This document shows positions 1,330 to 46,087 of a DNA stretch of 52,465 bases, piece after piece. Position 1 is the first letter of the stretch. Every line of letters starts with the position of its first letter. Source of the DNA: Patescibacteria group bacterium (GTDB lineage: Bacteria > Patescibacteriota > Minisyncoccia > Moranbacterales > UBA2206); the NCBI GenBank assembly GCA_022709735.1, contig JAKLIG010000004.1, forward strand, positions 66,240 through 118,704. The letters are read 5' to 3'. The position numbers were made by a program, and so were the translations under genes. The notes beneath the pieces are model-generated. The model saw nothing but the letters and a program-made list of their open reading frames with translations, was not told the origin of the DNA and did not search any database.

Positions 1330-4300
1330 TTATATTTTTCGAATCCCTATTTCTATTTTTTTTCCGTCAATCTCAAAAGTTTTTTTAAGATCAACTTCGG
1401 AGATTTCGCCAGAAGATAATATTTCATTCGCCAAAGTTTCTTTGGTGATTAATTTTTTAAGTTCCAAGTTGTTAAAGATCTCTGATTCGCCACTATAAGT
1501 TATTCTGATTCGATTGTCAACTTCATACCCCGCTTCTTTTCGCATTTCTTGAATAAAACGAACGACCTCTCGCGCCTGGCCTTCAAGTTTGAGTCCAGGA
1601 GTAATTTCAGTCTTAAGCTTAACCTCTTCTTCTTGTTTTTTATCAAAAATTACTTCCTTAACATTTAATTCTTCTTTTATAATATTTCTTAACTCCTCGC
1701 TTAATTCTTGCTTCTTAATTCTTACTTCTTGCAAAGGCTGTCTCACTTTTATTCCCGCTTTGGCGCGAAGCTGCAAACCTTCGCTGATTATCGCGCGAAC
1801 ATTTGCCATTTCTTCATTTAACTTTTCATCAATCATTTTTTCATCTGCCAGAGGGAAATTCTCCAAATGTACGGAACAAAAATTGTCATCCCGAACTTGT
1901 TTCGGGATCTCCTCAGAAGATGCTGAAACAAGTTCAGCATGACAACCCGAGAGGTTCCTCCAAATTTCTTCCGCGACAAACGGCGTAAACGGCGCCATTG
2001 ATTTCGCTAAAGTTATCAAAACATAATACAAAGTTTCATAAGCTTCGTTTTTGTCAGTATCATTTTCTGATTTCCAAAATCTCTTTCGGCTTCGGCGAAT
2101 GTACCAATTAGAAAGATTGTCGATGAATTTGGGAAAACATCTGGCCGCGCGCGTGAGCTCATAATTTTCCATATTTGCATTTATCTCCTTAATGAGCATA
2201 TTTAATTCTGAAATTATCCATCGATCCAATAGATTATTTCGACTTTCGACTTTCGACTTTCGACTTTCAAACTTATCTATATTTGCATAGAGAATAAAAA
2301 AAGAATACGAATTCCAAAGCATACGAAACATTCCGCGCACAAGATCAGCTAAATCCGATTCCTTGAAATTCAAGTTTTCTGCCTGCATCACACTTGAAGA
2401 AGTCAGATAAAATCTCAAGGCATCTGCGCCGTATTTTTCCAAAACATAATTCGGGTCAGGATAATTTTTGAGCCTTTTGGCCATTTTCTTTCCGTCTTCG
2501 GCCAAAACTATTCCGTTGACCACAACATTATTATAGGCTCTGGAACTTTTTATTCCCGTAGAAATAAGATGCAAATAATAAAACCAGCAACGAGTTTGAT
2601 CAACTCCTTCAGCGATAAATTCCGCCGGAAATCCCTTTTCAAAAACTTCTTTATTTTCAAACGGATAGTGAATTTGGGCGTAGGGCATTGAACCGCTATC
2701 AAACCAGGTGTCCAAAACATCCGGAATTCTTTTCATCTCGCCTCCACATTTGCATTTAAAAGTTATCTTATCCACAACATGCTTGTGAATATCAGAAATT
2801 TTCTCTCCACTTAATTCTTCTAATTTCTTAACTGAACCGATAACTTTTATCTCTCCGCAATCGCATTTCCAAATCGGCATAACGGATGCCCAAAATCTTT
2901 GCCGAGAGATCGACCAATCACGGGCTGATTCCAGCCAATTGCCAAATCTTCCATTTTTAATATGTGCAGGCGACCAATTTATTTTTTCTGCGTTTTTCAA
3001 AAGATCTTTTTTTATTTTTTCAACATTCACAAACCAAGAAGAAGTGGCATAATTTATTAGCGGTGTTTCACAGCGCCAGCAATGAGGATAGGAATGCTCG
3101 TATTTTTCCTTGGCAAAAAGTAAATTCTTTTTCGCTAAATATTTTATTATTTCCACATCTGTCTTTTGTGTGTCATTTTCCGGTTTCACATGCATTCCGG
3201 AAAAATCTTCCGCTTCCGGTCGGATTATTCCATCCATTCCAACATGCTGAATAAAAGGCAACTTTTCTTTTTTCCCTAAATTCATATCATCTTCTCCAAA
3301 AGCCGGCGCAATGTGCACAATTCCCGTTCCTTCTTCCGTCGTCACAAAATCTCCGGCATAAATTTTCCAGCCGTTTTCATGGTTAGCAAGCTTTTCATCT
3401 TTAGCGTAATAATCAAAAAGAGGCTCATAAGACAATCCTACCAAATGCTCTCCTTTAATCTCGCTCATTATTTCATATTCATTATTCTTAAATACTTCTT
3501 CAAGTCTTTCTTTGGCTAAAATAAAATATTCGTCTCCGGATTTGACCATTACATAGGAAATATTTTTGTTTATAGCTAAAGCAACATTTCCGATAAGCGT
3601 CCACGGAGTGGTAGTCCAAGCTAAGGCATATACTTTAGGCAATTGGTTTTCAATATTTTCATCAACATCAGTCTGAAGATTTTTTTTATAAATATCAATA
3701 TTATCATCCGAAGATGGGTAATCCATTTTTGGAAGCTTATCAATAGAAAACCATCCGATTTTATCTGCTTCATCTGGAACCATATTTTTTGGTTCGCTTT
3801 TCACTTTTACTTCATAGCAGACAGTTTCAAAAAGCCTTCCTTCAAAAATATAAGGTTTTTTAACAAAAGCTTTTAATGATTGAATTTCAACACCCAACTC
3901 TTCTTTAACTTCTCTTTCTACTGCCTCTCTAAAAGTTTCGCCTTTTTCTACCTTCCCGCCTGGCAAGGCCCAAGTAATTTTTCTTCCTTTTTCATTTCTA
4001 TGGATTAATAAAATTTCTCCCTTATCATTTGTTATTAAGGCGCCTACTCCTCTGCCAGTTTTGCCTAGCATATAATTTATTTTAAATTTTGCCACTACCG
4101 ACAAATCCTTCACATCCTTATACCCTTCCGCTACTTCGGATTGAGAAAGAGTTGTTTCGCAGCGCGGACAAATATGCATTGAACGATAGCCTTCATAAAC
4201 CAGACCCTTGTCATAAAGCTCTTTGAAAACCCACCAAACTGATTCCATATAGGACAGATCCATTGTTTTATAGGCATTTTCCATATCCGCCCAACGCCCG

Positions 4301-4713
4301 AAGCGCCTAATGGTTTTTTTCCAATCTGCCACATATTCCAAAACCTTTGACCGACAAAGTTCGTTGAATTTATCCACGCCTAATTTTTCAATATCTTTTT
4401 TCGCCTTTGAGCCTAATTCTTTTTCGACAATGTTTTCAATTGGAAGTCCATGACAATCCCAACCCCAAACTCGCGGAACATATCGTCCTTTCATTGTCCA
4501 AAATCTCGGTACAATATCTTTCATTGCACTGCCAACAAGATGACCATAATGGGGAGAGCCGGTGGCAAACGGCGGCCCATCATAAAAAGTATAAAGCGGA
4601 CAATCTTTTCGATTCTCCACTGACTTTTCAAATATTTTATTCTCTTCCCAAAAATTTAAAATTCCCTTTTCCATTTCAGGGAAATTCATTTTGGAATCTA
4701 CTTTCTTAAACAT
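1330..4713 (-). CDS. ileS: isoleucyl-tRNA synthetase (type 2, eukaryote-like) with an internal Nudix domain and repeat-derived inserts
   Basis: DGPPFATGSPHYGH (HIGH), KMAKR (KMSKS-like), the WTTTPWT editing motif and GTGIVHIAPAFGEDD. Continuous 1127-aa ORF. Confidence 0.95.
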   Translation of the reverse strand: MFKKVDSKMNFPEMEKGILNFWEENKIFEKSVENRKDCPLYTFYDGPPFATGSPHYGHLVGSAMKDIVPRFWTMKGRYVPRVWGWDCHGLPIENIVEKELGSKAKKDIEKLGVDKFNELCRSKVLEYVADWKKTIRRFGRWADMENAYKTMDLSYMESVWWVFKELYDKGLVYEGYRSMHICPRCETTLSQSEVAEGYKDVKDLSVVAKFKINYMLGKTGRGVGALITNDKGEILLIHRNEKGRKITWALPGGKVEKGETFREAVEREVKEELGVEIQSLKAFVKKPYIFEGRLFETVCYEVKVKSEPKNMVPDEADKIGWFSIDKLPKMDYPSSDDNIDIYKKNLQTDVDENIENQLPKVYALAWTTTPWTLIGNVALAINKNISYVMVKSGDEYFILAKERLEEVFKNNEYEIMSEIKGEHLVGLSYEPLFDYYAKDEKLANHENGWKIYAGDFVTTEEGTGIVHIAPAFGEDDMNLGKKEKLPFIQHVGMDGIIRPEAEDFSGMHVKPENDTQKTDVEIIKYLAKKNLLFAKEKYEHSYPHCWRCETPLINYATSSWFVNVEKIKKDLLKNAEKINWSPAHIKNGRFGNWLESARDWSISRQRFWASVMPIWKCDCGEIKVIGSVKKLEELSGEKISDIHKHVVDKITFKCKCGGEMKRIPDVLDTWFDSGSMPYAQIHYPFENKEVFEKGFPAEFIAEGVDQTRCWFYYLHLISTGIKSSRAYNNVVVNGIVLAEDGKKMAKRLKNYPDPNYVLEKYGADALRFYLTSSSVMQAENLNFKESDLADLVRGMFRMLWNSYSFFILYANIDKFESRKSKVESRNNLLDRWIISELNMLIKEINANMENYELTRAARCFPKFIDNLSNWYIRRSRKRFWKSENDTDKNEAYETLYYVLITLAKSMAPFTPFVAEEIWRNLSGCHAELVSASSEEIPKQVRDDNFCSVHLENFPLADEKMIDEKLNEEMANVRAIISEGLQLRAKAGIKVRQPLQEVRIKKQELSEELRNIIKEELNVKEVIFDKKQEEEVKLKTEITPGLKLEGQAREVVRFIQEMRKEAGYEVDNRIRITYSGESEIFNNLELKKLITKETLANEILSSGEISEVDLKKTFEIDGKKIEIGIRKI
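1885..1943. repeat. GTCAT...ATGAC palindromic element in frame in ileS
   Basis: gtcatcccgaacttgtttcgggatctcctcagaagatgctgaaacaagttcagcatgac. Two hairpins (cccgaa/ttcggg and tgctgaa/ttcagca) sit between inverted gtcat/atgac ends. It encodes CHAELVSASSEEIPKQVRDDN. Confidence 0.8.
2241..2268. repeat. heptanucleotide tandem repeat (gactttc)x4 inside ileS
   Basis: Four perfect 7-nt units read directly from the sequence. They encode ESRKSKVESR on the minus strand. Confidence 0.9.
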
Positions 4714-5869
4714 TTTTATAAACTTCTAGAGTTTCTTTAGCTGTTTTTTCCCAGTCAAATTTCTCAACTTGCTTAAATCCTTTTTGGCGAAGGTCGTATC
4801 TCAATTTGTCATCCATTGCTAGTTTCATCATCGCTTCAGAAATTTCTTCCGTATTCATCGGATCAACAAAATAGGCTGCCTCTCCTGCTACTTCCGGAAT
4901 AGAAGAAACATTGGAAACAATCGCTGGCGTGCCGGTCGCGAAAGCTTCAAGCACTGTCATCCCAAATCCTTCATAAAGAGAAGGCATCACAAAAAATTCA
5001 GCATTTTTGAAAAGCGGAACCAGTTCATCGCCAATAATATAACCGGTAAAAATTACATCTTTGGCGATTCCCAAATCTTTCACAATCTGTTTGTATTCTC
5101 CGGCGAGCCATCCATTTTTTCCAGCTAAAATTAATTTATGCTGGCATTTTCCGCCTGATTTCAAACATTTTTCTTTGAAAATTTTGAAAGCTTCTAGAAG
5201 CCTTGTGATATTTTTTATCGGTTCAATCGTACCAAGGAACAGTATATATTTTTCATCCATTGGAATTCCATACTTTTCTAAAACTTTTTCGTGCGTAATA
5301 TTTGACTCTTCAAAAAGTCTTCTGTCAAAACCGCTATGAATCACCTTGATTTTTTCGCCGTCGTATTTGAAAATATTTTCAATGTCATTTTTAGTCGACT
5401 GCGAAACTGCAATTATATTGTCCGCCTTAGAAACCATAAGGCTCATCGTTGTCTTGATTTTTGCGCTCTTGAGTTTTGGAAAAACATCCGGCACTTTATA
5501 TACCGCTAAGTCATGAATCGTGACAATGGTTTTCCCGCGATATCCGACTGGAATCCGGCTCATCGGAGAAGTAGAATGGACGATATCCAAGTTCTCTTTC
5601 ATCAAAGTCGCCGTTCCCAAAATTTCGTTGTATGCTCCTGGCAAATATTTTTTATAATCCGAGAAAGGATAAAATTTTATCTTCACATTGGGACGCTCAA
5701 ATTTTTTGACATCTTTTTCGCGAACTCTAAAATCGAAAAACAAAACATATTCGTTTTCTTTGTCGATTTCAATCAAATGCCGAATAAGCTGGTAGGTATA
5801 ATGACCCACCCCGATCGCTTCACCTTTTTCCGGATTTAATATTGTTCGAGCATCAATTCCTATTCGCAT
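4706..5869 (-). CDS. glycosyltransferase family 4 (GT-B fold)
   Basis: C-terminal YEGFGMTVLEAFATGTPAIVSNVSSIPEV region typical of GT4/GT1 enzymes. Overlaps the ileS start by 8 nt. Confidence 0.85.
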   Translation of the reverse strand: MRIGIDARTILNPEKGEAIGVGHYTYQLIRHLIEIDKENEYVLFFDFRVREKDVKKFERPNVKIKFYPFSDYKKYLPGAYNEILGTATLMKENLDIVHSTSPMSRIPVGYRGKTIVTIHDLAVYKVPDVFPKLKSAKIKTTMSLMVSKADNIIAVSQSTKNDIENIFKYDGEKIKVIHSGFDRRLFEESNITHEKVLEKYGIPMDEKYILFLGTIEPIKNITRLLEAFKIFKEKCLKSGGKCQHKLILAGKNGWLAGEYKQIVKDLGIAKDVIFTGYIIGDELVPLFKNAEFFVMPSLYEGFGMTVLEAFATGTPAIVSNVSSIPEVAGEAAYFVDPMNTEEISEAMMKLAMDDKLRYDLRQKGFKQVEKFDWEKTAKETLEVYKNV

Positions 5870-5880
5870 AAAATTTTATT

Positions 5881-7539
5881 TTACATTTTATCTGGCGCGT
5901 TTACGCCAAGAATTCGTAGTGTTTCTCCTAATACTATTTTAACAGCATTTATAAGGTTTAGTCTAGCACTGGTCAACTCTGGATTTTCTTCATCTATTAC
6001 TTTGCAATCATTGTAGAATGAGTGAAATTTATCCGCTAAATTTATCGCATAATACGGCAAACGGTGCACTTCGTAATTTTTTGATATGCTTTCAATAAGT
6101 TCTGGAAATTTATTGAGCTCGCGGATTAAATTCAGCTCTTTTTCGTGAGTTAATAAAGATAAATTTCCTGACTTTTGACTTTTGACTTTCAGCTTTTGAC
6201 TTTTCGCAAGTATGTTTGCAATTCTCGCATATGCATATTGAATGTAATACACCGGATTCTTCTCAGATCTTTCTTTCGCCAAATTCAAATCAAAAGTCAT
6301 GTGCGTGTTGGCGTCATACATAAGAAAGAAAAATCTCACAGCATCCAAGCCAACTTCCGAAATTAATTCATCAATATAAACAATATTCCCGGCACGCTTG
6401 CTCATTCTCGCTTCCTTGCCGTCTTTTACTAATCTAACCAGCTGAACAATAACAAATTTCAGTTCGCCTTTGAAACCAAGTGCTTCGGTGGCAGCTTTAA
6501 ATCTTGAAATGTAGCCATGGTGATCCGCTCCCCAAATTTCAATAATCTTTTCAAATTTTCTTTCTATTTTATTCAAAATATATCCGCAGTCAGATGCAAA
6601 ATAAGTTTTTTGCCCGTCTTTTTTGACCAAAACTCGATCCTTGTCATCGCCAAATTTTGTCGTCTCAAGCCACAAGGCTCCATCTTTTTCATAAGTCAGC
6701 TTCTTCTTTTTCAATTTTTCAATTGCCTTTTCGACATATCCGCTGTCATATAAATCTTTCTTTTCAGAAATCCAGCTATCAAAATTAATCTGCATTTTTT
6801 CTTTGACTGTTTTTTTGATAATTTTATCCAAAATAATTTTACCAGATTTTTCTCCAATTTTTTTAATATCCTCGGCACCTTTAAATTTTTTATTTAATTC
6901 GTCTATATAATCTCCGGCATAAACCGCTTCGCTGTCTTTCGCCACACTATGCCCCAATTTCAAAACTTGCTCTCCAGCGTCATTCACATAATATTCATTA
7001 ACATTATCATACCCAGATTTTTCTAAAATTTTTCCAATTACATCGCCCAAAAATCCTCCTCGTCCATTACCCAGATGAAGCGGACCGGTCGGATTGGCAG
7101 AAATAAATTCATTATTAACTTTTATCCCTTTCCCGTTTTTACTTTCGCCGAATTTATTTTTCTGCTTATTTATTTCGCCGATTTTATTTTGTAAATATTC
7201 TTTTGAAAGATAGAAATTTATATAGCCCGGTTTAGCAATTTCTATTTTTTCGAAAATATTTTCGTCATTGCGAGGAGCCGAAGGCGACGTGGCAATCTCA
7301 TTCTTTTTTAGTTTAATTTTACTATTTTGAGATTGCTTCACTTCGCTCGCAATGACAGCAACTATCTCTTCCGCCACCGTCATCGGATTTTTTTTCACGC
7401 TCTTGCTCAAAACCATCGCCACATTGGTCGTATAATCGCCAAAAACCTCGTTTTTTGGATAATCAACATCAACCTCTTTTATATCATATCCGAGGGTTTT
7501 TATGGCTTTCTCTAAAAATTTTTGAATTTCGTGTTTCAT
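5881..7539 (-). CDS. argS: arginyl-tRNA synthetase
   Basis: SANPTGPLHLGNGRGG (HIGH region), WGADHHGY, and C-terminal DALR-type anticodon domain (PVYYIQYAYARI). 552 aa. Confidence 0.95.
   Translation of the reverse strand: MKHEIQKFLEKAIKTLGYDIKEVDVDYPKNEVFGDYTTNVAMVLSKSVKKNPMTVAEEIVAVIASEVKQSQNSKIKLKKNEIATSPSAPRNDENIFEKIEIAKPGYINFYLSKEYLQNKIGEINKQKNKFGESKNGKGIKVNNEFISANPTGPLHLGNGRGGFLGDVIGKILEKSGYDNVNEYYVNDAGEQVLKLGHSVAKDSEAVYAGDYIDELNKKFKGAEDIKKIGEKSGKIILDKIIKKTVKEKMQINFDSWISEKKDLYDSGYVEKAIEKLKKKKLTYEKDGALWLETTKFGDDKDRVLVKKDGQKTYFASDCGYILNKIERKFEKIIEIWGADHHGYISRFKAATEALGFKGELKFVIVQLVRLVKDGKEARMSKRAGNIVYIDELISEVGLDAVRFFFLMYDANTHMTFDLNLAKERSEKNPVYYIQYAYARIANILAKSQKLKVKSQKSGNLSLLTHEKELNLIRELNKFPELIESISKNYEVHRLPYYAINLADKFHSFYNDCKVIDEENPELTSARLNLINAVKIVLGETLRILGVNAPDKM
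6170..6204. repeat. heptanucleotide tandem repeat (gactttt-like x5) inside argS
   Basis: gactttt gactttt gactttc agctttt gactttt, encoding KSQKLKVKSQKSG. Same unit family as in ileS 2241-2268. Confidence 0.85.
7264..7357. repeat. GTCAT...ATGAC composite palindromic element in frame in argS
   Basis: gtcattgcgaggagccgaaggcgacgtggcaatctc, an AT spacer, then gagattgcttcacttcgctcgcaatgac. The arms are an inverted pair. Encodes roughly SEVKQSQNSKIKLKKNEIATSPSAPRNDE. Confidence 0.8.
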
Positions 7540-42540: not shown

Positions 42541-42613
42541 GGGCCCTTAGCTCATTTGGTAGAGCACCTGCTTTGCAAGCAGGGGGTGATCGGTTCGAGC
42601 CCGATAGGGTCCA
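42541..42613 (+). tRNA. tRNA-Ala (UGC)
   Basis: Cloverleaf read by eye. Acceptor gggccct/agggtcc with G3:U70, anticodon loop ttTGCaa, T-arm ggttcgagcc. No encoded CCA. Confidence 0.9.
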
Positions 42614-42857
42614 CTAAAGACAGAATCCAAATAAAAAGAAACTCCCAAAAGAGTCTCTTTTTTTATCTCTAAATTTTTTGCAATAAAACAAAACAGATTA
42701 AATACAGTTTTTTATTTTTCTTGCGCGTTTAATTTATTGGTAGCTTCCGGTATCAACAGTATTTCTCTAAAATTATTTATCAAGGGAGAATCTTTCCGGC
42801 CCATTTTTAATGTTCAAAGTTTTAATTAAAATTTTTTAAATAAATTAAGCTTAAACA

Positions 42858-43019
42858 TCAAGCTTTTCTAACAAGTGTTTTCTTGGGCAAATATTTAATC
42901 AAGGCTTTTTCCGTCAGAGCGGTTAAACTTATATCTTCAACTATAGCTTGCGTTTTGGCACACTTTAGAAGCTTCAGATCAATAAAAAGGGTAACTCTTT
43001 TTTTGTTGCTAGTTGTCAT
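42858..43019 (-). CDS. ribbon-helix-helix (CopG/antitoxin-like) small protein, 53 aa
   Basis: Own translation: MTTSNKKRVTLFIDLKLLKCAKTQAIVEDISLTALTEKALIKYLPKKTLVRKA. The KRVTL...L...AK...A...SL..L.E.AL..YL pattern is typical of RHH proteins. Operator-like inverted repeat upstream. Confidence 0.5.
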   Translation of the reverse strand: MTTSNKKRVTLFIDLKLLKCAKTQAIVEDISLTALTEKALIKYLPKKTLVRKA

Positions 43020-43038
43020 AATTCATTATGTTAAATTA

Positions 43039-43063
43039 GTTGTACTTATGCCTATAGTACAAC
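43039..43063. promoter_or_regulatory. 8-bp inverted repeat (gttgtact N9 agtacaac) upstream of the RHH gene, operator candidate
   Basis: Read directly. Lies about 20-45 nt upstream of the RHH start codon. Confidence 0.4.
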
Positions 43064-43167
43064 GATAGTAGCAGCATATTTCTTTTAATAAGAGGAAATA
43101 TAAAGTTGTTGCAAGTGTACTAATACTACAAGTTTAAGCGCTTGTTTAATTATTAATAAACAACCCT

Positions 43168-43317
43168 ATGTTGTGGACTATAGCTGTAATTTTACTGATC
43201 CTGTGGCTTTTGGGATTCATTACCTCAGCTACTTTCGGCGGATGGATTCATATTCTGTTGGTCATAGCGCTAGTGGTAGTTGTCATACAATTGCTTCAGG
43301 GCAGAAGAATTCTATAA
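43168..43317 (+). CDS. lmo0937-family small membrane protein (49 aa)
   Basis: Own translation: MLWTIAVILLILWLLGFITSATFGGWIHILLVIALVVVVIQLLQGRRIL. Terminator at 43331-43357. Confidence 0.6.
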   Translation: MLWTIAVILLILWLLGFITSATFGGWIHILLVIALVVVVIQLLQGRRIL

Positions 43318-43474
43318 AATTAAACAAAAAAAGAAGTTTACCAGAACTTCTTTTTTGCTGTTTTAATTTTTTGATATGTTATATTAAATATTGAGATTGA
43401 ATCTCTCCAGCTCTTGTCAGTGCTTAAATTATGTGATAATCTATTTCCATTGTGAACTCAAATAATCCACATGC

Positions 43475-43548
43475 GGGCGTATAGCTCAGTTGGTTAGAGC
43501 GCGTCACTGATAATGACGAGGTCTCAAGTTCGACTCTTGATACGCCCA
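43475..43548 (+). tRNA. tRNA-Ile (GAU)
   Basis: Acceptor gggcgta/tacgccc, D-arm agctcagttggttagagc, anticodon loop ctGATaa, T-arm aagttcgactctt. Confidence 0.9.
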
Positions 43549-43579
43549 CAAATAAAACAGCCCCCTAAGGCTGTTTTAT

Positions 43580-46087
43580 TTATTTTAACTTTCCCACCGC
43601 TTTTTTGAACTCGTCCCCTTTTTCTTCAAAATTTTTCCACAAACTATAACTCGGAGAAGCTGTTGAGAGGAGACAAACTGATCCTTCGGGCGTGTATTTA
43701 TAAGCAAACTCGACCGCTTTTCTCATACTTTTAGTGTTGAAAACTCTAAAAAAATTATTCTTTTTCAAAATTCTTTTTCCGCTGTCCGGGAATAAAACAA
43801 TATTTTCTATTTTATGTTTTTTCAATTGCTTTTCCAATTCCCTAAAATCATATCCGCGATCTTCTCCGCCAAGCATTATAGTTTTAACACCTGGAATTGC
43901 TTCAAGCGCCGCGATAGTTGACTGCGGAGTAGTAGAGATGGCATCATCATAAAATTTTATTCCTCTAAACTCTCCCACAAACTCTAGGCGATGAGGCAGT
44001 GACTGAAATTCTTCTACTGCCTTTTTAATTATCTTATCAGATATTTTTAAAATTCTTGCCACTGCGATAGCTGCTTTTATGTTATTTTCATTATGTTTTC
44101 CTATTAGCGAATAACTAAGACCTTTTAAATTTATACTTTTATCAAATGGAACAGTCTTTGCTTTCGCTTCTCGGGCTAAAGTTTTTAGTTTTTTGTCACT
44201 TTCATTGTAGACAAAATAATTCCAAGGGTTTTGAAATTTGATTATTTTGCTCTTAGCTTCGTAATATTTTTCCGTATTACCATGATAATTCATATGCTCA
44301 GGAAAGAGATTTGTCATCACTGCAATATCAGGCGAATATTGAATATCATCCAATTGATAACTGGAAAGTTCCGCCACAAAAATTTCATCACTAGCGACTG
44401 GCTTCATCAGAACATTCAGCATCGGATTCCCTATATTCCCCAACAATTTTACTTTTTTTCCTGCCTTTTTTAAAACAAAATAAATCAAAGAAGCGGTCGT
44501 GCTCTTACCTTTGCTTCCAGTCACCCCGATTATTTTATTTTTTATTTGAGAAAAAAATAAATTTGTAGCGGTCGTATATGGAACATTTAAAAATCTTTTT
44601 GATATTCCCGGAGTTTTTATTACTAAATCAAAATTGGCTTGTTTTTCTAAATAATTTTGACCGTTTTTTTTGTCAGCAATCCCTATTTTTATTTTCGGAT
44701 AAAATTTATTTATGTATTTCTTGGTAGCCATTCCCTCTTTGCCATAGCCTAATATCAAAACATTTTTCATTCCAAAAAATTTGAAATTTGCTGGCATCGT
44801 CTGCGAAGGATTAGTTTTAAAAACTTTTTCCACTAATTTTTCAGGATTATTTATCCGACTTAGAAAGGTTTTTAAAATCAAACTGTCTTTGAATTTATTT
44901 TTTGCCAAGAAAATGGCCGCTCTAGCCTCGTCAAATGTTCCTACGCAATCAAAAGGTTTCATTTTCCCATAACCTAATATGTCCGCAAAAACAGGAAGTA
45001 AATTCTTTTCTTCAAATAAGTTTTTGCCAAAAATTTTGACGACTTCTTCTTTTCTCAAAAAAGCTGCCAGCATGGTAAAAACAAAAGCACATTTAGCACA
45101 TTCTCCACACCATAAAGTTTTTGGGCGATCTTTTTTTATCCTGAAACTTCGATTACAACTTGTGAAAAAAGGAAAATATTTTTTGTATTTTGAAAACATT
45201 TCTGCAATACGAATTTCATAAAATGGACGCAACAGTGAAAAATAAAGCACATCCGGACAAATAAATTCCCGCGTATAATCTTGAAAGATTTCCTCAAATT
45301 CTAGCGATTTACTCCACTGATGATTTATATTTTCTCCAAAATATTTTACATTTCCAAAATTACTACTATATTCATTGGCCACTATTACATATGAATAATC
45401 GCATATGACCGCCATAGTATAGCCCAAAAAAGCAAAAATTGCCGAGATAGGAACATGGCCATTATAAGCGCCTTCGTGTTCCTGAAATATTTTTTCGTCT
45501 AAGCATCTTTCGATAATCAGCGAATTTATGCCAATTTTTTGAATTAGTCCCTCTGCAATTGAAGATTTTTTCTGAGTTTCGACTACCATTGCAGTGGCAT
45601 CTATTTTATTTTCTTTCAAAAGTTCTGCTACAACAATTGAATCTTTTCCTCCTCCAATTCCAAGAAGGACGCGATTTTTTCTAGGCAAATGGAATGGCTC
45701 CAAACTAACTTTATTGCTATAAGGAAAATTAATTAAATTTTTAAAATTTATTTTATTCACATAAAAAAATTCGCCTAAGCCTTTTTTATAAACTGCATTC
45801 CAAAAATCAGCCTGTTTTTTCGACAAGGAAACATTTAATTTAAATTTCGGCGGACAATATAGTTTATAATAACTGACTCCCAACACTATGTGCAGATTTG
45901 AAAGCAAGCTATCGAGAAGTTTTTGCGAAATTTTATTTGCAAAAAAAGGTTTTGGAAAAATTATAGTTTCTGTGAAAACAAGCGGCTCTCTGTTTGAAAA
46001 TTCGATTTTGTAATTAAATAAAAGCTTCCTGATTTGAGGATTAAAATTATAAGAAGTAAATTCAAAACTTTTCGCAACAGGTTGCAT
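43580..46087 (-). CDS. murD: fusion protein: N-terminal PP-loop ATPase-like domain (MurL-like candidate) plus C-terminal UDP-MurNAc-L-Ala--glutamate ligase (MurD)
   Basis: C-terminal half: VLILGYGKEGMA, GVTGSKGKSTT, LPHRLEFV, LGGEDRGYDF (MurD pattern). N-terminal ~440 aa: LLGIGGGKDS (PP-loop), WCGECAKC. Confidence 0.8.
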   Translation of the reverse strand: MQPVAKSFEFTSYNFNPQIRKLLFNYKIEFSNREPLVFTETIIFPKPFFANKISQKLLDSLLSNLHIVLGVSYYKLYCPPKFKLNVSLSKKQADFWNAVYKKGLGEFFYVNKINFKNLINFPYSNKVSLEPFHLPRKNRVLLGIGGGKDSIVVAELLKENKIDATAMVVETQKKSSIAEGLIQKIGINSLIIERCLDEKIFQEHEGAYNGHVPISAIFAFLGYTMAVICDYSYVIVANEYSSNFGNVKYFGENINHQWSKSLEFEEIFQDYTREFICPDVLYFSLLRPFYEIRIAEMFSKYKKYFPFFTSCNRSFRIKKDRPKTLWCGECAKCAFVFTMLAAFLRKEEVVKIFGKNLFEEKNLLPVFADILGYGKMKPFDCVGTFDEARAAIFLAKNKFKDSLILKTFLSRINNPEKLVEKVFKTNPSQTMPANFKFFGMKNVLILGYGKEGMATKKYINKFYPKIKIGIADKKNGQNYLEKQANFDLVIKTPGISKRFLNVPYTTATNLFFSQIKNKIIGVTGSKGKSTTASLIYFVLKKAGKKVKLLGNIGNPMLNVLMKPVASDEIFVAELSSYQLDDIQYSPDIAVMTNLFPEHMNYHGNTEKYYEAKSKIIKFQNPWNYFVYNESDKKLKTLAREAKAKTVPFDKSINLKGLSYSLIGKHNENNIKAAIAVARILKISDKIIKKAVEEFQSLPHRLEFVGEFRGIKFYDDAISTTPQSTIAALEAIPGVKTIMLGGEDRGYDFRELEKQLKKHKIENIVLFPDSGKRILKKNNFFRVFNTKSMRKAVEFAYKYTPEGSVCLLSTASPSYSLWKNFEEKGDEFKKAVGKLK

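Follow-up and report, generated by a model that had tools for sequence, protein, structure and literature searches.

A MutT-like Nudix domain inserted just ahead of the CP1 editing domain in a patescibacterial isoleucyl-tRNA synthetase, with parallels in valyl-tRNA synthetases

The 52,465-nucleotide stretch of contig JAKLIG010000004.1 analyzed here (the window, by which we mean that whole stretch) comes from an uncultured, small-genome bacterium of the Patescibacteria (candidate phyla radiation, CPR; Moranbacteria-like), and encodes an isoleucyl-tRNA synthetase (IleRS) with a complete Nudix hydrolase domain nested inside it. The domain occupies a surface loop, in the hairpin connecting the Rossmann/Zn module with the connective peptide 1 (CP1) editing domain, a few residues ahead of the Thr-rich editing motif (Table 1). 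An earlier note, made from the DNA sequence alone, had described a continuous 1127-residue IleRS reading frame with about 146 extra residues at approximately positions 212–359, a complete Nudix box, flanking segments resembling strands of the Nudix fold and a location at the entry to CP1. All of this was borne out. The reading frame is continuous and lies on the minus strand, which the note did not state; every position of the box is present; the flanks belong to a confidently predicted Nudix fold; and alignment to relatives and to a solved structure (8c8v) sets the insert at residues 213–360 (148 residues) and places it just before the WTTTPWT motif.

The boundaries of the insert emerge consistently from several comparisons. 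Relative to the closest relatives, the segment between KDLSVVAKFKI and VYALAWTTTPWTL takes the place of about eight residues. Against the Priestia megaterium IleRS2 structure 8c8v, the best solved relative of the window protein, residues 3–213 align with chain residues 2–212 and residues 361–1077 with chain residues 217–909, such that about 147 residues stand in for a four-residue loop. At the nucleotide level, the blastn alignment to the locus of a Nudix-less orthologue (L083) breaks at the same insert coordinates. The spacer at this site is 17 residues long in 67 of the 120 closest IleRS and no more than 33 residues in the others measured, as against 160–161 residues in the Nudix carriers. 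In profile searches, the insert scores as a Nudix domain (PF00293, E=7e-23; 81.6 bits versus a gathering score of 21.1) and its host as an IleRS. The box itself, G253-x5-E259-x7-R267-E268-V-x-E271-E272-x-G274-V275, fits the GX5EX7REUXEEXGU consensus at every position and, by a regular-expression scan, GKVEKGETFREAVEREVKEELGV is the sole Nudix box in the window. We regard this anatomy, and its reality, as close to certain.

Table 1. Features of the Nudix-containing IleRS gene, in window coordinates
Feature	Residues	Position (nt)	Strand	Basis
ileS, type-2 (eukaryote-like) isoleucyl-tRNA synthetase, 1127 aa, host gene	1–1127	1330..4713	minus	ORF (open reading frame) list, profiles, synteny
HIGH motif, HYGH	55–58	4540..4551	minus	invariant in alignment with relatives
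Hairpin strand 1, KDLSVVAKFKI, from the Rossmann/Zn module to CP1	202–212	4078..4110	minus	alignments
Inserted segment, Nudix domain plus linkers (148 aa)	213–360	3634..4077	minus	alignment to Nudix-less relatives, 8c8v split
Nudix fold core, PF00293	219–333	3715..4059	minus	Pfam, AlphaFold2 and Foldseek
Nudix box GKVEKGETFREAVEREVKEELGV; catalytic R267, E268, E271, E272	253–275	3889..3957	minus	regular-expression scan
C-terminal end of Nudix module and return linker, predicted flexible	329–356	3646..3729	minus	pLDDT <50 in full-length model
Hairpin strand 2 and Thr-rich editing motif, VYALAWTTTPWTL	361–373	3595..3633	minus	alignment
Second editing-site motif (GTG.VH.AP.FG..D), GTGIVHIAPAFGEDD	462–476	3286..3330	minus	invariant columns G462..D476
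KMSKS motif, KMAKR	743–747	2473..2487	minus	K743, M744 and K746 invariant in alignment

The metagenomic origin of the sequence is the sole ground for suspecting a chimeric contig, or a frameshift that conceals two genes. However, an identical protein is encoded on seven contigs from independent samples, among them a 114-kb contig from JGI and one from the Logan assembly of SRR5007146, and homologous fusions with 60–67% identity occur in independent NCBI, JGI, ENA and Logan assemblies. Further, the reading frame is uninterrupted and the flanking IleRS halves align seamlessly. Since the identical protein recurs on seven contigs, and since independent fusions exist, a misassembly or a frameshift splitting the gene, the outcome that the earlier note had named as fatal to its claim, can be excluded within the limits of sequence data, and we give an artifactual origin practically no credence.

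The host is a bona fide synthetase of the type-2 lineage. The whole protein scores 950.2 bits against the NCBIfam ileS model TIGR00392 (cut-off 621.4), and Pfam detects tRNA-synt_1 (residues 18–781, E=3.5e-140), Anticodon_1 and DUF5915 in the reading frame, with the NUDIX match nested inside that of tRNA-synt_1. A full-length AlphaFold2 model (mean predicted local distance difference test, pLDDT, 79.3; predicted template-modeling score, pTM, 0.73) superposes on the type-2 IleRS 8c8w with TM-scores of 0.77/0.84. The HIGH, KMSKS and WTTTPWT motifs and the second editing-site motif GTGIVHIAPAFGEDD are all intact and show no variation among relatives with or without the insert; LAWTTTPWTL (L364–L373, with WTTTPWT at residues 366–372) is likewise unchanged across Nudix-plus and Nudix-minus relatives. 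Because these motifs are retained, the window protein should, to judge from its sequence, still charge and proofread tRNA-Ile; the window also contains a gene for tRNA-Ile(GAU). The gene order RNase HII–ArgRS–glycosyltransferase (GT4)–IleRS–CAP is common to the window and to the Nudix-less orthologue P0124 (locus L083); therefore, this is the housekeeping ileS rather than an extra paralogue. The remainder of the window is an ordinary CPR chromosome with genes for DnaE, ThrRS, GatB, MiaA, ThyA, GAPDH and a NiFe hydrogenase.

In the full-length model, the Nudix part is moderately confident and its junctions (residues 216–220 and 329–356) have pLDDT values below 50. When residues 190–400 were modeled with a Nudix-rich alignment, the insert reached pLDDT 85–98 with the expected strand-helix pattern, the Nudix box being borne on a predicted helix at residues 261–273 (H72–84 of the fragment model). 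The fragment model is also confident (pLDDT ~88–93) over the stretch matching residues 329–356, including a helix, H144–154, and for this reason only part of that stretch is likely to be a flexible linker; the tethers are thus predicted from the models to be at least partly flexible. Foldseek searches with the insert model retrieved 4dyw (TMt 0.87, root-mean-square deviation 1.6), MutT (3a6t, TMt 0.86) and AtNUDX1, with BdRppH and the Ap6A (diadenosine hexaphosphate) hydrolase Ndx1 at about 0.8, and sequence searches likewise place the insert nearest to the MutT-like 4dyw, AtNUDX1 and MutT. The insert is, accordingly, a generic MutT-like Nudix: it shares its fold, size and box with minimal enzymes of the MutT/NUDT1-like kind (Burkholderia pseudomallei 4dyw, Escherichia coli MutT, Arabidopsis thaliana NUDX1; 27–32% identity, TMt 0.75–0.87). 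Those enzymes are free-standing proteins; the insert falls below the MutT equivalog cut-off and has invariant motifs of its own, TGRGVGA and EGRLFET.

Attempts to attach a more specific identity to the domain were rejected. The NCBIfam scores for MutT, RppH, NudC and mycobacterial MutT1 all lie under their cut-offs, and the NuCoA motif of CoA-type Nudix enzymes, compared by eye, does not fit. Because no curated equivalog cut-off is reached, a substrate cannot be assigned from profiles. The insert also matches the PADLOC anti-phage defense model PDC-S07 (75 bits); however, E. coli MutT outscores it on the same model (130.7 bits), which identifies PDC-S07 as a generic MutT-like profile and makes the match non-specific. 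The isoelectric point of the Nudix core ranges from 4.8 to 9.3 among the fusions and its charge is not consistently basic, a variability that argues against a dedicated RNA binder.

Five of the 120 closest IleRS carry the Nudix domain, and the members with names are from Moranbacteria, Parcubacteria and Falkowbacteria. An HMMER scan of 1.84 billion cluster representatives yielded about 11 further proteins with a Nudix domain flanked by IleRS sequence, several of them confirmed by Pfam and by alignment, and a scan of GTDB species representatives added three more (L003, L004 and L016). In total, 23 distinct public IleRS sequences have a Nudix domain immediately before WTTTPWT, all of them from Patescibacteria/CPR where the source name or the closest relatives indicate an origin, and public annotation calls them merely ‘isoleucine--tRNA ligase’. 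Neither of the other two outcomes that the earlier note would have counted against its claim holds, since the profiles score the insert as Nudix and the fusion is rare and uncharacterized. The note had missed that the architecture is not unique to this genome and that its distribution is patchy and recombining. The catalytic RE..EE core is kept in 19 of the 19 aligned sequences and the full box in nine; in two sequences of group B (P0246 and P0247) the GX5E spacing is distorted. By sequence, the Nudix parts form related groups A and B, a separate group C and several singletons, and these groups, about 30% identical to one another, are no closer among themselves than to free-living Nudix proteins. 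A separate peculiarity attaches to L016 (~4560–7500 of JAVHOR010000065, Patescibacteria), whose ileS is readable only with UGA as Gly (code 25): its product bears a Nudix domain at the same hairpin and, following YANIDNW, a His_Phos_1-like domain at a third site, together with a low-complexity peptide of the PSP..GEG type in two copies.

The phyletic pattern indicates that the module comes and goes. The nearest IleRS backbones to the window protein lack the insert (P0124 at 82% identity, P0123 and P0125 at 80%), whereas the nearest carriers are only 71–73% identical, and a neighbor-joining (NJ) tree interleaves carriers with non-carriers and calls for at least three changes of state. These results go part of the way to demonstrating that the Nudix module is an accessory that was lost or gained among close relatives. 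In the Nudix-carrying ileS pair L003 (5281–6801) and L004 (253–3624), the insert has a dN/dS of 0.15, indicating purifying selection on it, and the two genes are mosaic. Over codons 1–200, the synonymous difference (pS) is 0.5–0.85, amounting to saturation, and it falls to 0.08–0.38 from the 5' edge of the insert through the Nudix domain into CP1. This drop marks a recombination breakpoint at the boundary of the insert, and it partly establishes that, in at least one pair, homologous recombination carried the insert along with the CP1 segment next to it. At the protein level, the CP1 segment (residues 361–470) shows excess similarity among carriers (Mann-Whitney p 0.0009–0.03), while five of the six tests on control regions were not significant, a control for P0172 giving p=0.005. 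In the window gene itself, G+C content at third codon positions (GC3) drops to 0.19–0.28 over window positions ~3379–4047 (codons 223–445), spanning the Nudix insert and about 80 following CP1 codons, as opposed to 0.29–0.45 elsewhere in ileS. Such a trough would fit recombination of this segment from a donor of lower GC content. A synonymous-site mosaic test of the window gene against the Nudix-less L083 was saturated (pS 0.4–0.9) and carried no information.

Two nucleotide-level oddities of the gene may be recorded alongside. A 12-nt imperfect direct repeat, GCATATACTTTA / GCATATAATTTA, lies at both junctions of the insert (3626–3637 and 4068–4079; shuffle p ~0.0014). We considered it as a target-site duplication or another footprint of transposition and rejected that notion, given that the copies are 442 nt apart, and hence out of frame, and that four other fusion genes lack the repeat. 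Further along the gene, at window positions 1885–1943 (residues ~921–945), is a near-perfect, in-frame palindrome with 25-nt arms, GTCATCCCGAACTTGTTTCGGGATC / GTCATGCTGAACTTGTTTCAGCATC, whose RNA fold has a predicted energy of -39.1 kcal/mol (z=-6.1) and which encodes CHAELVSASSEEIPKQVRDDNFC in the anticodon-binding region. It occurs once in the window and is missing from most homologues, some of which have other odd inserts at that place; it looks like a hairpin element of the repetitive extragenic palindrome (REP) or miniature inverted-repeat transposable element (MITE) kind tolerated in frame.

The same exhaustive search uncovered a parallel in a different synthetase. P0269 is a valyl-tRNA synthetase (ValRS) in which two tandem Nudix domains replace the seven-residue loop 204–210 of Thermus thermophilus ValRS (1GAX); the hairpin concerned precedes the TxRPET motif and is the homologue of the one used in IleRS. 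A search with P0269 recovered eight more such proteins, for a total of nine (P0269, P0398–P0404 and P0416; locus L089, 443–2254). The three with a source name are all annotated in ‘endosymbiont GvMRE of Glomus versiforme’, one of the Mollicutes-related endobacteria of arbuscular mycorrhizal fungi, which thus has three different ValRS-Nudix proteins. The spacing from DxEV to TxRPET is 155–184 residues in the fusions (300 with two Nudix domains), versus 25 in Nudix-less ValRS relatives, and the catalytic residues are intact in all nine. The ValRS Nudix domains form a sequence cluster of their own and represent an independent acquisition, by another enzyme in another phylum and in an unrelated lineage with reduced genomes.

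Two further proteins with multiple Nudix domains stand somewhat apart from these. P0345 (1268 residues) is a fragment of a bacterial-type leucyl-tRNA synthetase (LeuRS) in which KMSKS is followed by three inserted Nudix domains and a HAD phosphatase, and which has a serine-hydrolase-like region at its N-terminus. P0322 (1157 residues) combines two Nudix domains related to the insert with a RelA_SpoT synthetase domain and a RyR domain, and is possibly an alarmone or toxSAS-type conflict protein.

The Nudix domain is also not the only enzymatic insert in these IleRS. A catalytically intact histidine phosphatase (His_Phos_1, with its RHG motif) occupies a second loop, between SRQRFW...CGE.KV.GS and DLHKH, in 10 of the 120 closest IleRS; we found it at this site in P0131, P0145, P0154, P0158, P0187, P0190, P0194, P0198, P0208, P0196, P0242 and P0376. 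Its distribution is very patchy, with 11 changes of state on the NJ tree. The phosphatase inserts are 30–50% identical and their IleRS backbones 70–75%, and a recent lateral transfer of the inserts is therefore unsupported. Five IleRS (P0196, P0242, P0376, P0286 and L016), drawn from two Nudix groups and with at least two phosphatase sites among them, have both Nudix and His_Phos_1. P0131 additionally has a P-loop kinase-like domain (AAA_33/kinase-like), and P0196 a C-terminal rhodanese. By Pfam and motif scans, neither a His_Phos_1 domain nor an RHG motif is present in the window protein or elsewhere in the window.

We propose that the insert, as a MutT-like Nudix domain nested in the hairpin loop leading into CP1 of a housekeeping type-2 IleRS, would function as an autonomous, flexibly tethered, Mg2+-dependent pyrophosphohydrolase on a small nucleoside-polyphosphate substrate. 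Candidate substrates include non-canonical or oxidized nucleoside triphosphates and dinucleoside polyphosphates, and in some relatives the histidine phosphatase elsewhere in the same protein may remove the remaining phosphate. From the conserved residues and the low dN/dS of the insert we infer metal-dependent pyrophosphohydrolase activity. A tethered enzyme of this kind is the most likely reading because the catalytic residues are kept, purifying selection acts on the insert and the models predict flexible linkers; we rank autonomy first because the domain is generic and MutT-like, its junctions are predicted to flex, close relatives dispense with it and these IleRS generally tolerate unrelated inserts. 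On balance, we lean towards an active, largely autonomous small-molecule Nudix enzyme.

Several observations count against this account. None of the curated families scored is reached: the insert scores 59.1 bits on the MutT 8-oxo-dGTP diphosphatase model TIGR00586 (equivalog cut-off 97.9), 35.1 bits on the PRK00714 models of RppH/NudH RNA pyrophosphohydrolases and Ap4A-type (diadenosine tetraphosphate) enzymes (cut-off 116) and 33 bits on the mycobacterial MutT1 model NF052459 (cut-off 475). The evidence for recombination is direct in one pair only and its protein-level signal is modest; moreover, the CP1 segment evolves fast in general, even among Nudix-less relatives, which weakens the case on protein evidence that this segment is foreign in the window gene. 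Autonomy alone would leave it unexplained why Nudix lineages only ~30% identical landed repeatedly in precisely this IleRS hairpin, and again in the homologous hairpin of ValRS in another phylum. The ValRS parallel and the repeated co-occurrence of phosphatases favor some link to class Ia synthetases or to CP1, and a coupling of the Nudix domain to synthetase chemistry would be plausible. We nevertheless think it rather improbable that the synthetase itself generates the substrate as a by-product.

One form of such coupling, raised in the earlier note, would be a clean-up or proofreading step, in which the Nudix domain hydrolyzes Ap4A or other dinucleoside polyphosphates (ApnA) formed from Ile-AMP and ATP, or a released non-cognate aminoacyl-adenylate, as a sink in cis beside the editing domain. 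The adjacency of the domain to CP1, the occurrence of Nudix domains in ValRS and LeuRS, which like IleRS are editing class Ia enzymes, a structural likeness that extends to the Ap6A hydrolase Ndx1 (TMt 0.80), and phosphatase partners that could complete the degradation all speak for it. However, ApnA synthesis is not special to IleRS and is strongest in LysRS and PheRS, which are not class Ia enzymes, so that this proposal does not account for the specificity for the CP1 hairpin. Acyl-adenylates have no pyrophosphate bond, and no Nudix enzyme is known to cleave them. With the insert below the cut-off for NudH/RppH-type families and close relatives managing without it, we consider this explanation unlikely. 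A different form of coupling takes its cue from the fact that CP1 receives the 3'-CCA end of the tRNA: the domain might repair or deprotect the acceptor end held there, for instance by removing a 3'-pyrophosphate or phosphate left by toxic RelA/SpoT-type enzymes or by trimming a 5'-triphosphate or cap, with the phosphatases and the P-loop kinase-like domain helping in relatives. It would suit this idea that the recurrent inserts are all of a kind that acts on phosphate ends (Nudix, His_Phos_1, HAD and AAA_33/kinase-like), that P0322 combines a related Nudix pair with a RelA_SpoT synthetase domain, and that conflict-related accessories typically show such a patchy, recombining spread. A precedent is offered by the CCA-adding enzyme of E. 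coli, whose HD domain has 2',3'-cyclic phosphodiesterase and phosphatase activities. Yet the Nudix cores are not consistently basic, no similarity to RppH or YtkD rises above cut-offs, the PADLOC match is non-specific, and mending tRNA-Ile or tRNA-Val alone would be of limited use; we saw no toxSAS or ligase genes in the window, and a literature search returned no Nudix enzyme acting on pyrophosphorylated tRNA. We therefore hold tRNA-end repair to be distinctly improbable. We are similarly skeptical of a broader version, according to which Nudix domains, His and HAD phosphatases and the kinase-like module would make up a hitherto unknown station for quality control or repair, borne by class Ia synthetases, acting on the tRNA acceptor end or an adenylate-type intermediate at CP1 (for instance by clearing 3'-(pyro)phosphate blocks that toxins had installed), and convergently recruited for that function by CPR IleRS and Mollicutes-related ValRS.

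Finally, the domain might have no catalytic role at all and act instead as an appendage with a structural, regulatory or ligand-sensing function, such as sensing nucleotides or binding a partner or a cellular location. The distorted GX5E spacing of P0246 and P0247 is in line with this, as is the CAAD domain, an insert that alters the localization of synthetases and not their catalysis (PMC4893482). Set against it are the RE..EE residues, retained in every aligned IleRS fusion and in the nine ValRS fusions, the full box in nine IleRS and the dN/dS of 0.15, which together make a non-catalytic appendage very unlikely.

Several known systems offer points of comparison for a Nudix domain within a class I synthetase. 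The nearest is the CAAD domain, a transmembrane anchor found in the cyanobacterial class I synthetases ValRS, IleRS, LeuRS, GluRS and others (PMC4893482). As in those proteins, a stand-alone domain has been recruited repeatedly and independently to internal sites with a patchy distribution, and the CAAD-bearing synthetase stays active. However, CAAD is a membrane anchor and not an enzyme, whereas the domain at the hairpin leading into CP1, in IleRS from CPR and in Mollicutes-related ValRS, is a Nudix hydrolase; as a soluble Nudix domain, and not a Curt1/CAAD domain with transmembrane helices, the insert is related to the CAAD case by analogy only. Among curated models the nearest is NF040702, an NCBI exception model for IleRS with an N-acetyltransferase domain, in which a foreign enzymatic domain is likewise nested in the CP1 region. 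Its insert, however, is a GNAT domain lying some 30 residues past WTTTPWT (profile positions ~275–447), and the window protein, with 354.9 bits against a cut-off of 1999 and no GNAT match, is not a member of that family. With the type-2 (mupirocin-resistant-type) IleRS, for example P. megaterium 8c8v and T. thermophilus 1ile, the window protein shares the whole scaffold including the C-terminal tRNA-binding domain, and departs from them in having 148 residues where they have a loop of 4–11. Mycobacterial MutT1 joins an N-terminal Nudix to a C-terminal RHG histidine-phosphatase domain (PMC11784022). The same pair of catalytic domains recurs in the five IleRS relatives with both inserts, with the difference that the domains are contiguous in MutT1 and lie in separate loops in these IleRS, the window protein having the Nudix domain only; scores on the MutT1 model, NF052459, are 33–54 bits, far short of its cut-off of 475.

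Full-text literature searches found no description of a Nudix domain within an IleRS, in agreement with the earlier note; a 2017 review of the Nudix clan contains no occurrence of ‘tRNA’, and papers on unusual synthetase domains do not mention Nudix. The Nudix-IleRS architecture is thus rare and apparently undescribed, whereas class I synthetases with a nested accessory domain are already known in kind; neither the CAAD synthetases nor the GNAT-containing IleRS involves a Nudix domain or the CP1 entry hairpin. Class I synthetases are among the best-studied of enzymes. Even so, we could find no paper describing a catalytic Nudix domain nested where the editing domain opens. The ValRS parallel and the recurrent phosphatases suggest more than an accidental gene fusion: either the hairpin serves accessory enzymes in general as a docking port, or an unrecognized chemical link connects Nudix-type hydrolysis with class Ia synthetases or their editing. 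Both alternatives bear on how minimal symbionts handle nucleotide by-products and translation quality. Independently of function, the locus offers a clean case from nature of an inserted domain that spreads through homologous recombination inside an essential gene.

Elsewhere in the window, two loci caught our attention. On the plus strand at 42541–43549, tRNA-Ala(UGC) and tRNA-Ile(GAU) genes lie about 860 nt apart; this pair usually resides in rRNA spacers, and no rRNA was detected anywhere in the window. On the minus strand at 43580–46087, a gene encodes an 835-residue Mur-ligase-like protein whose N-terminal ~520 residues have no Pfam match and whose Mur ligase domains begin at residue ~522.

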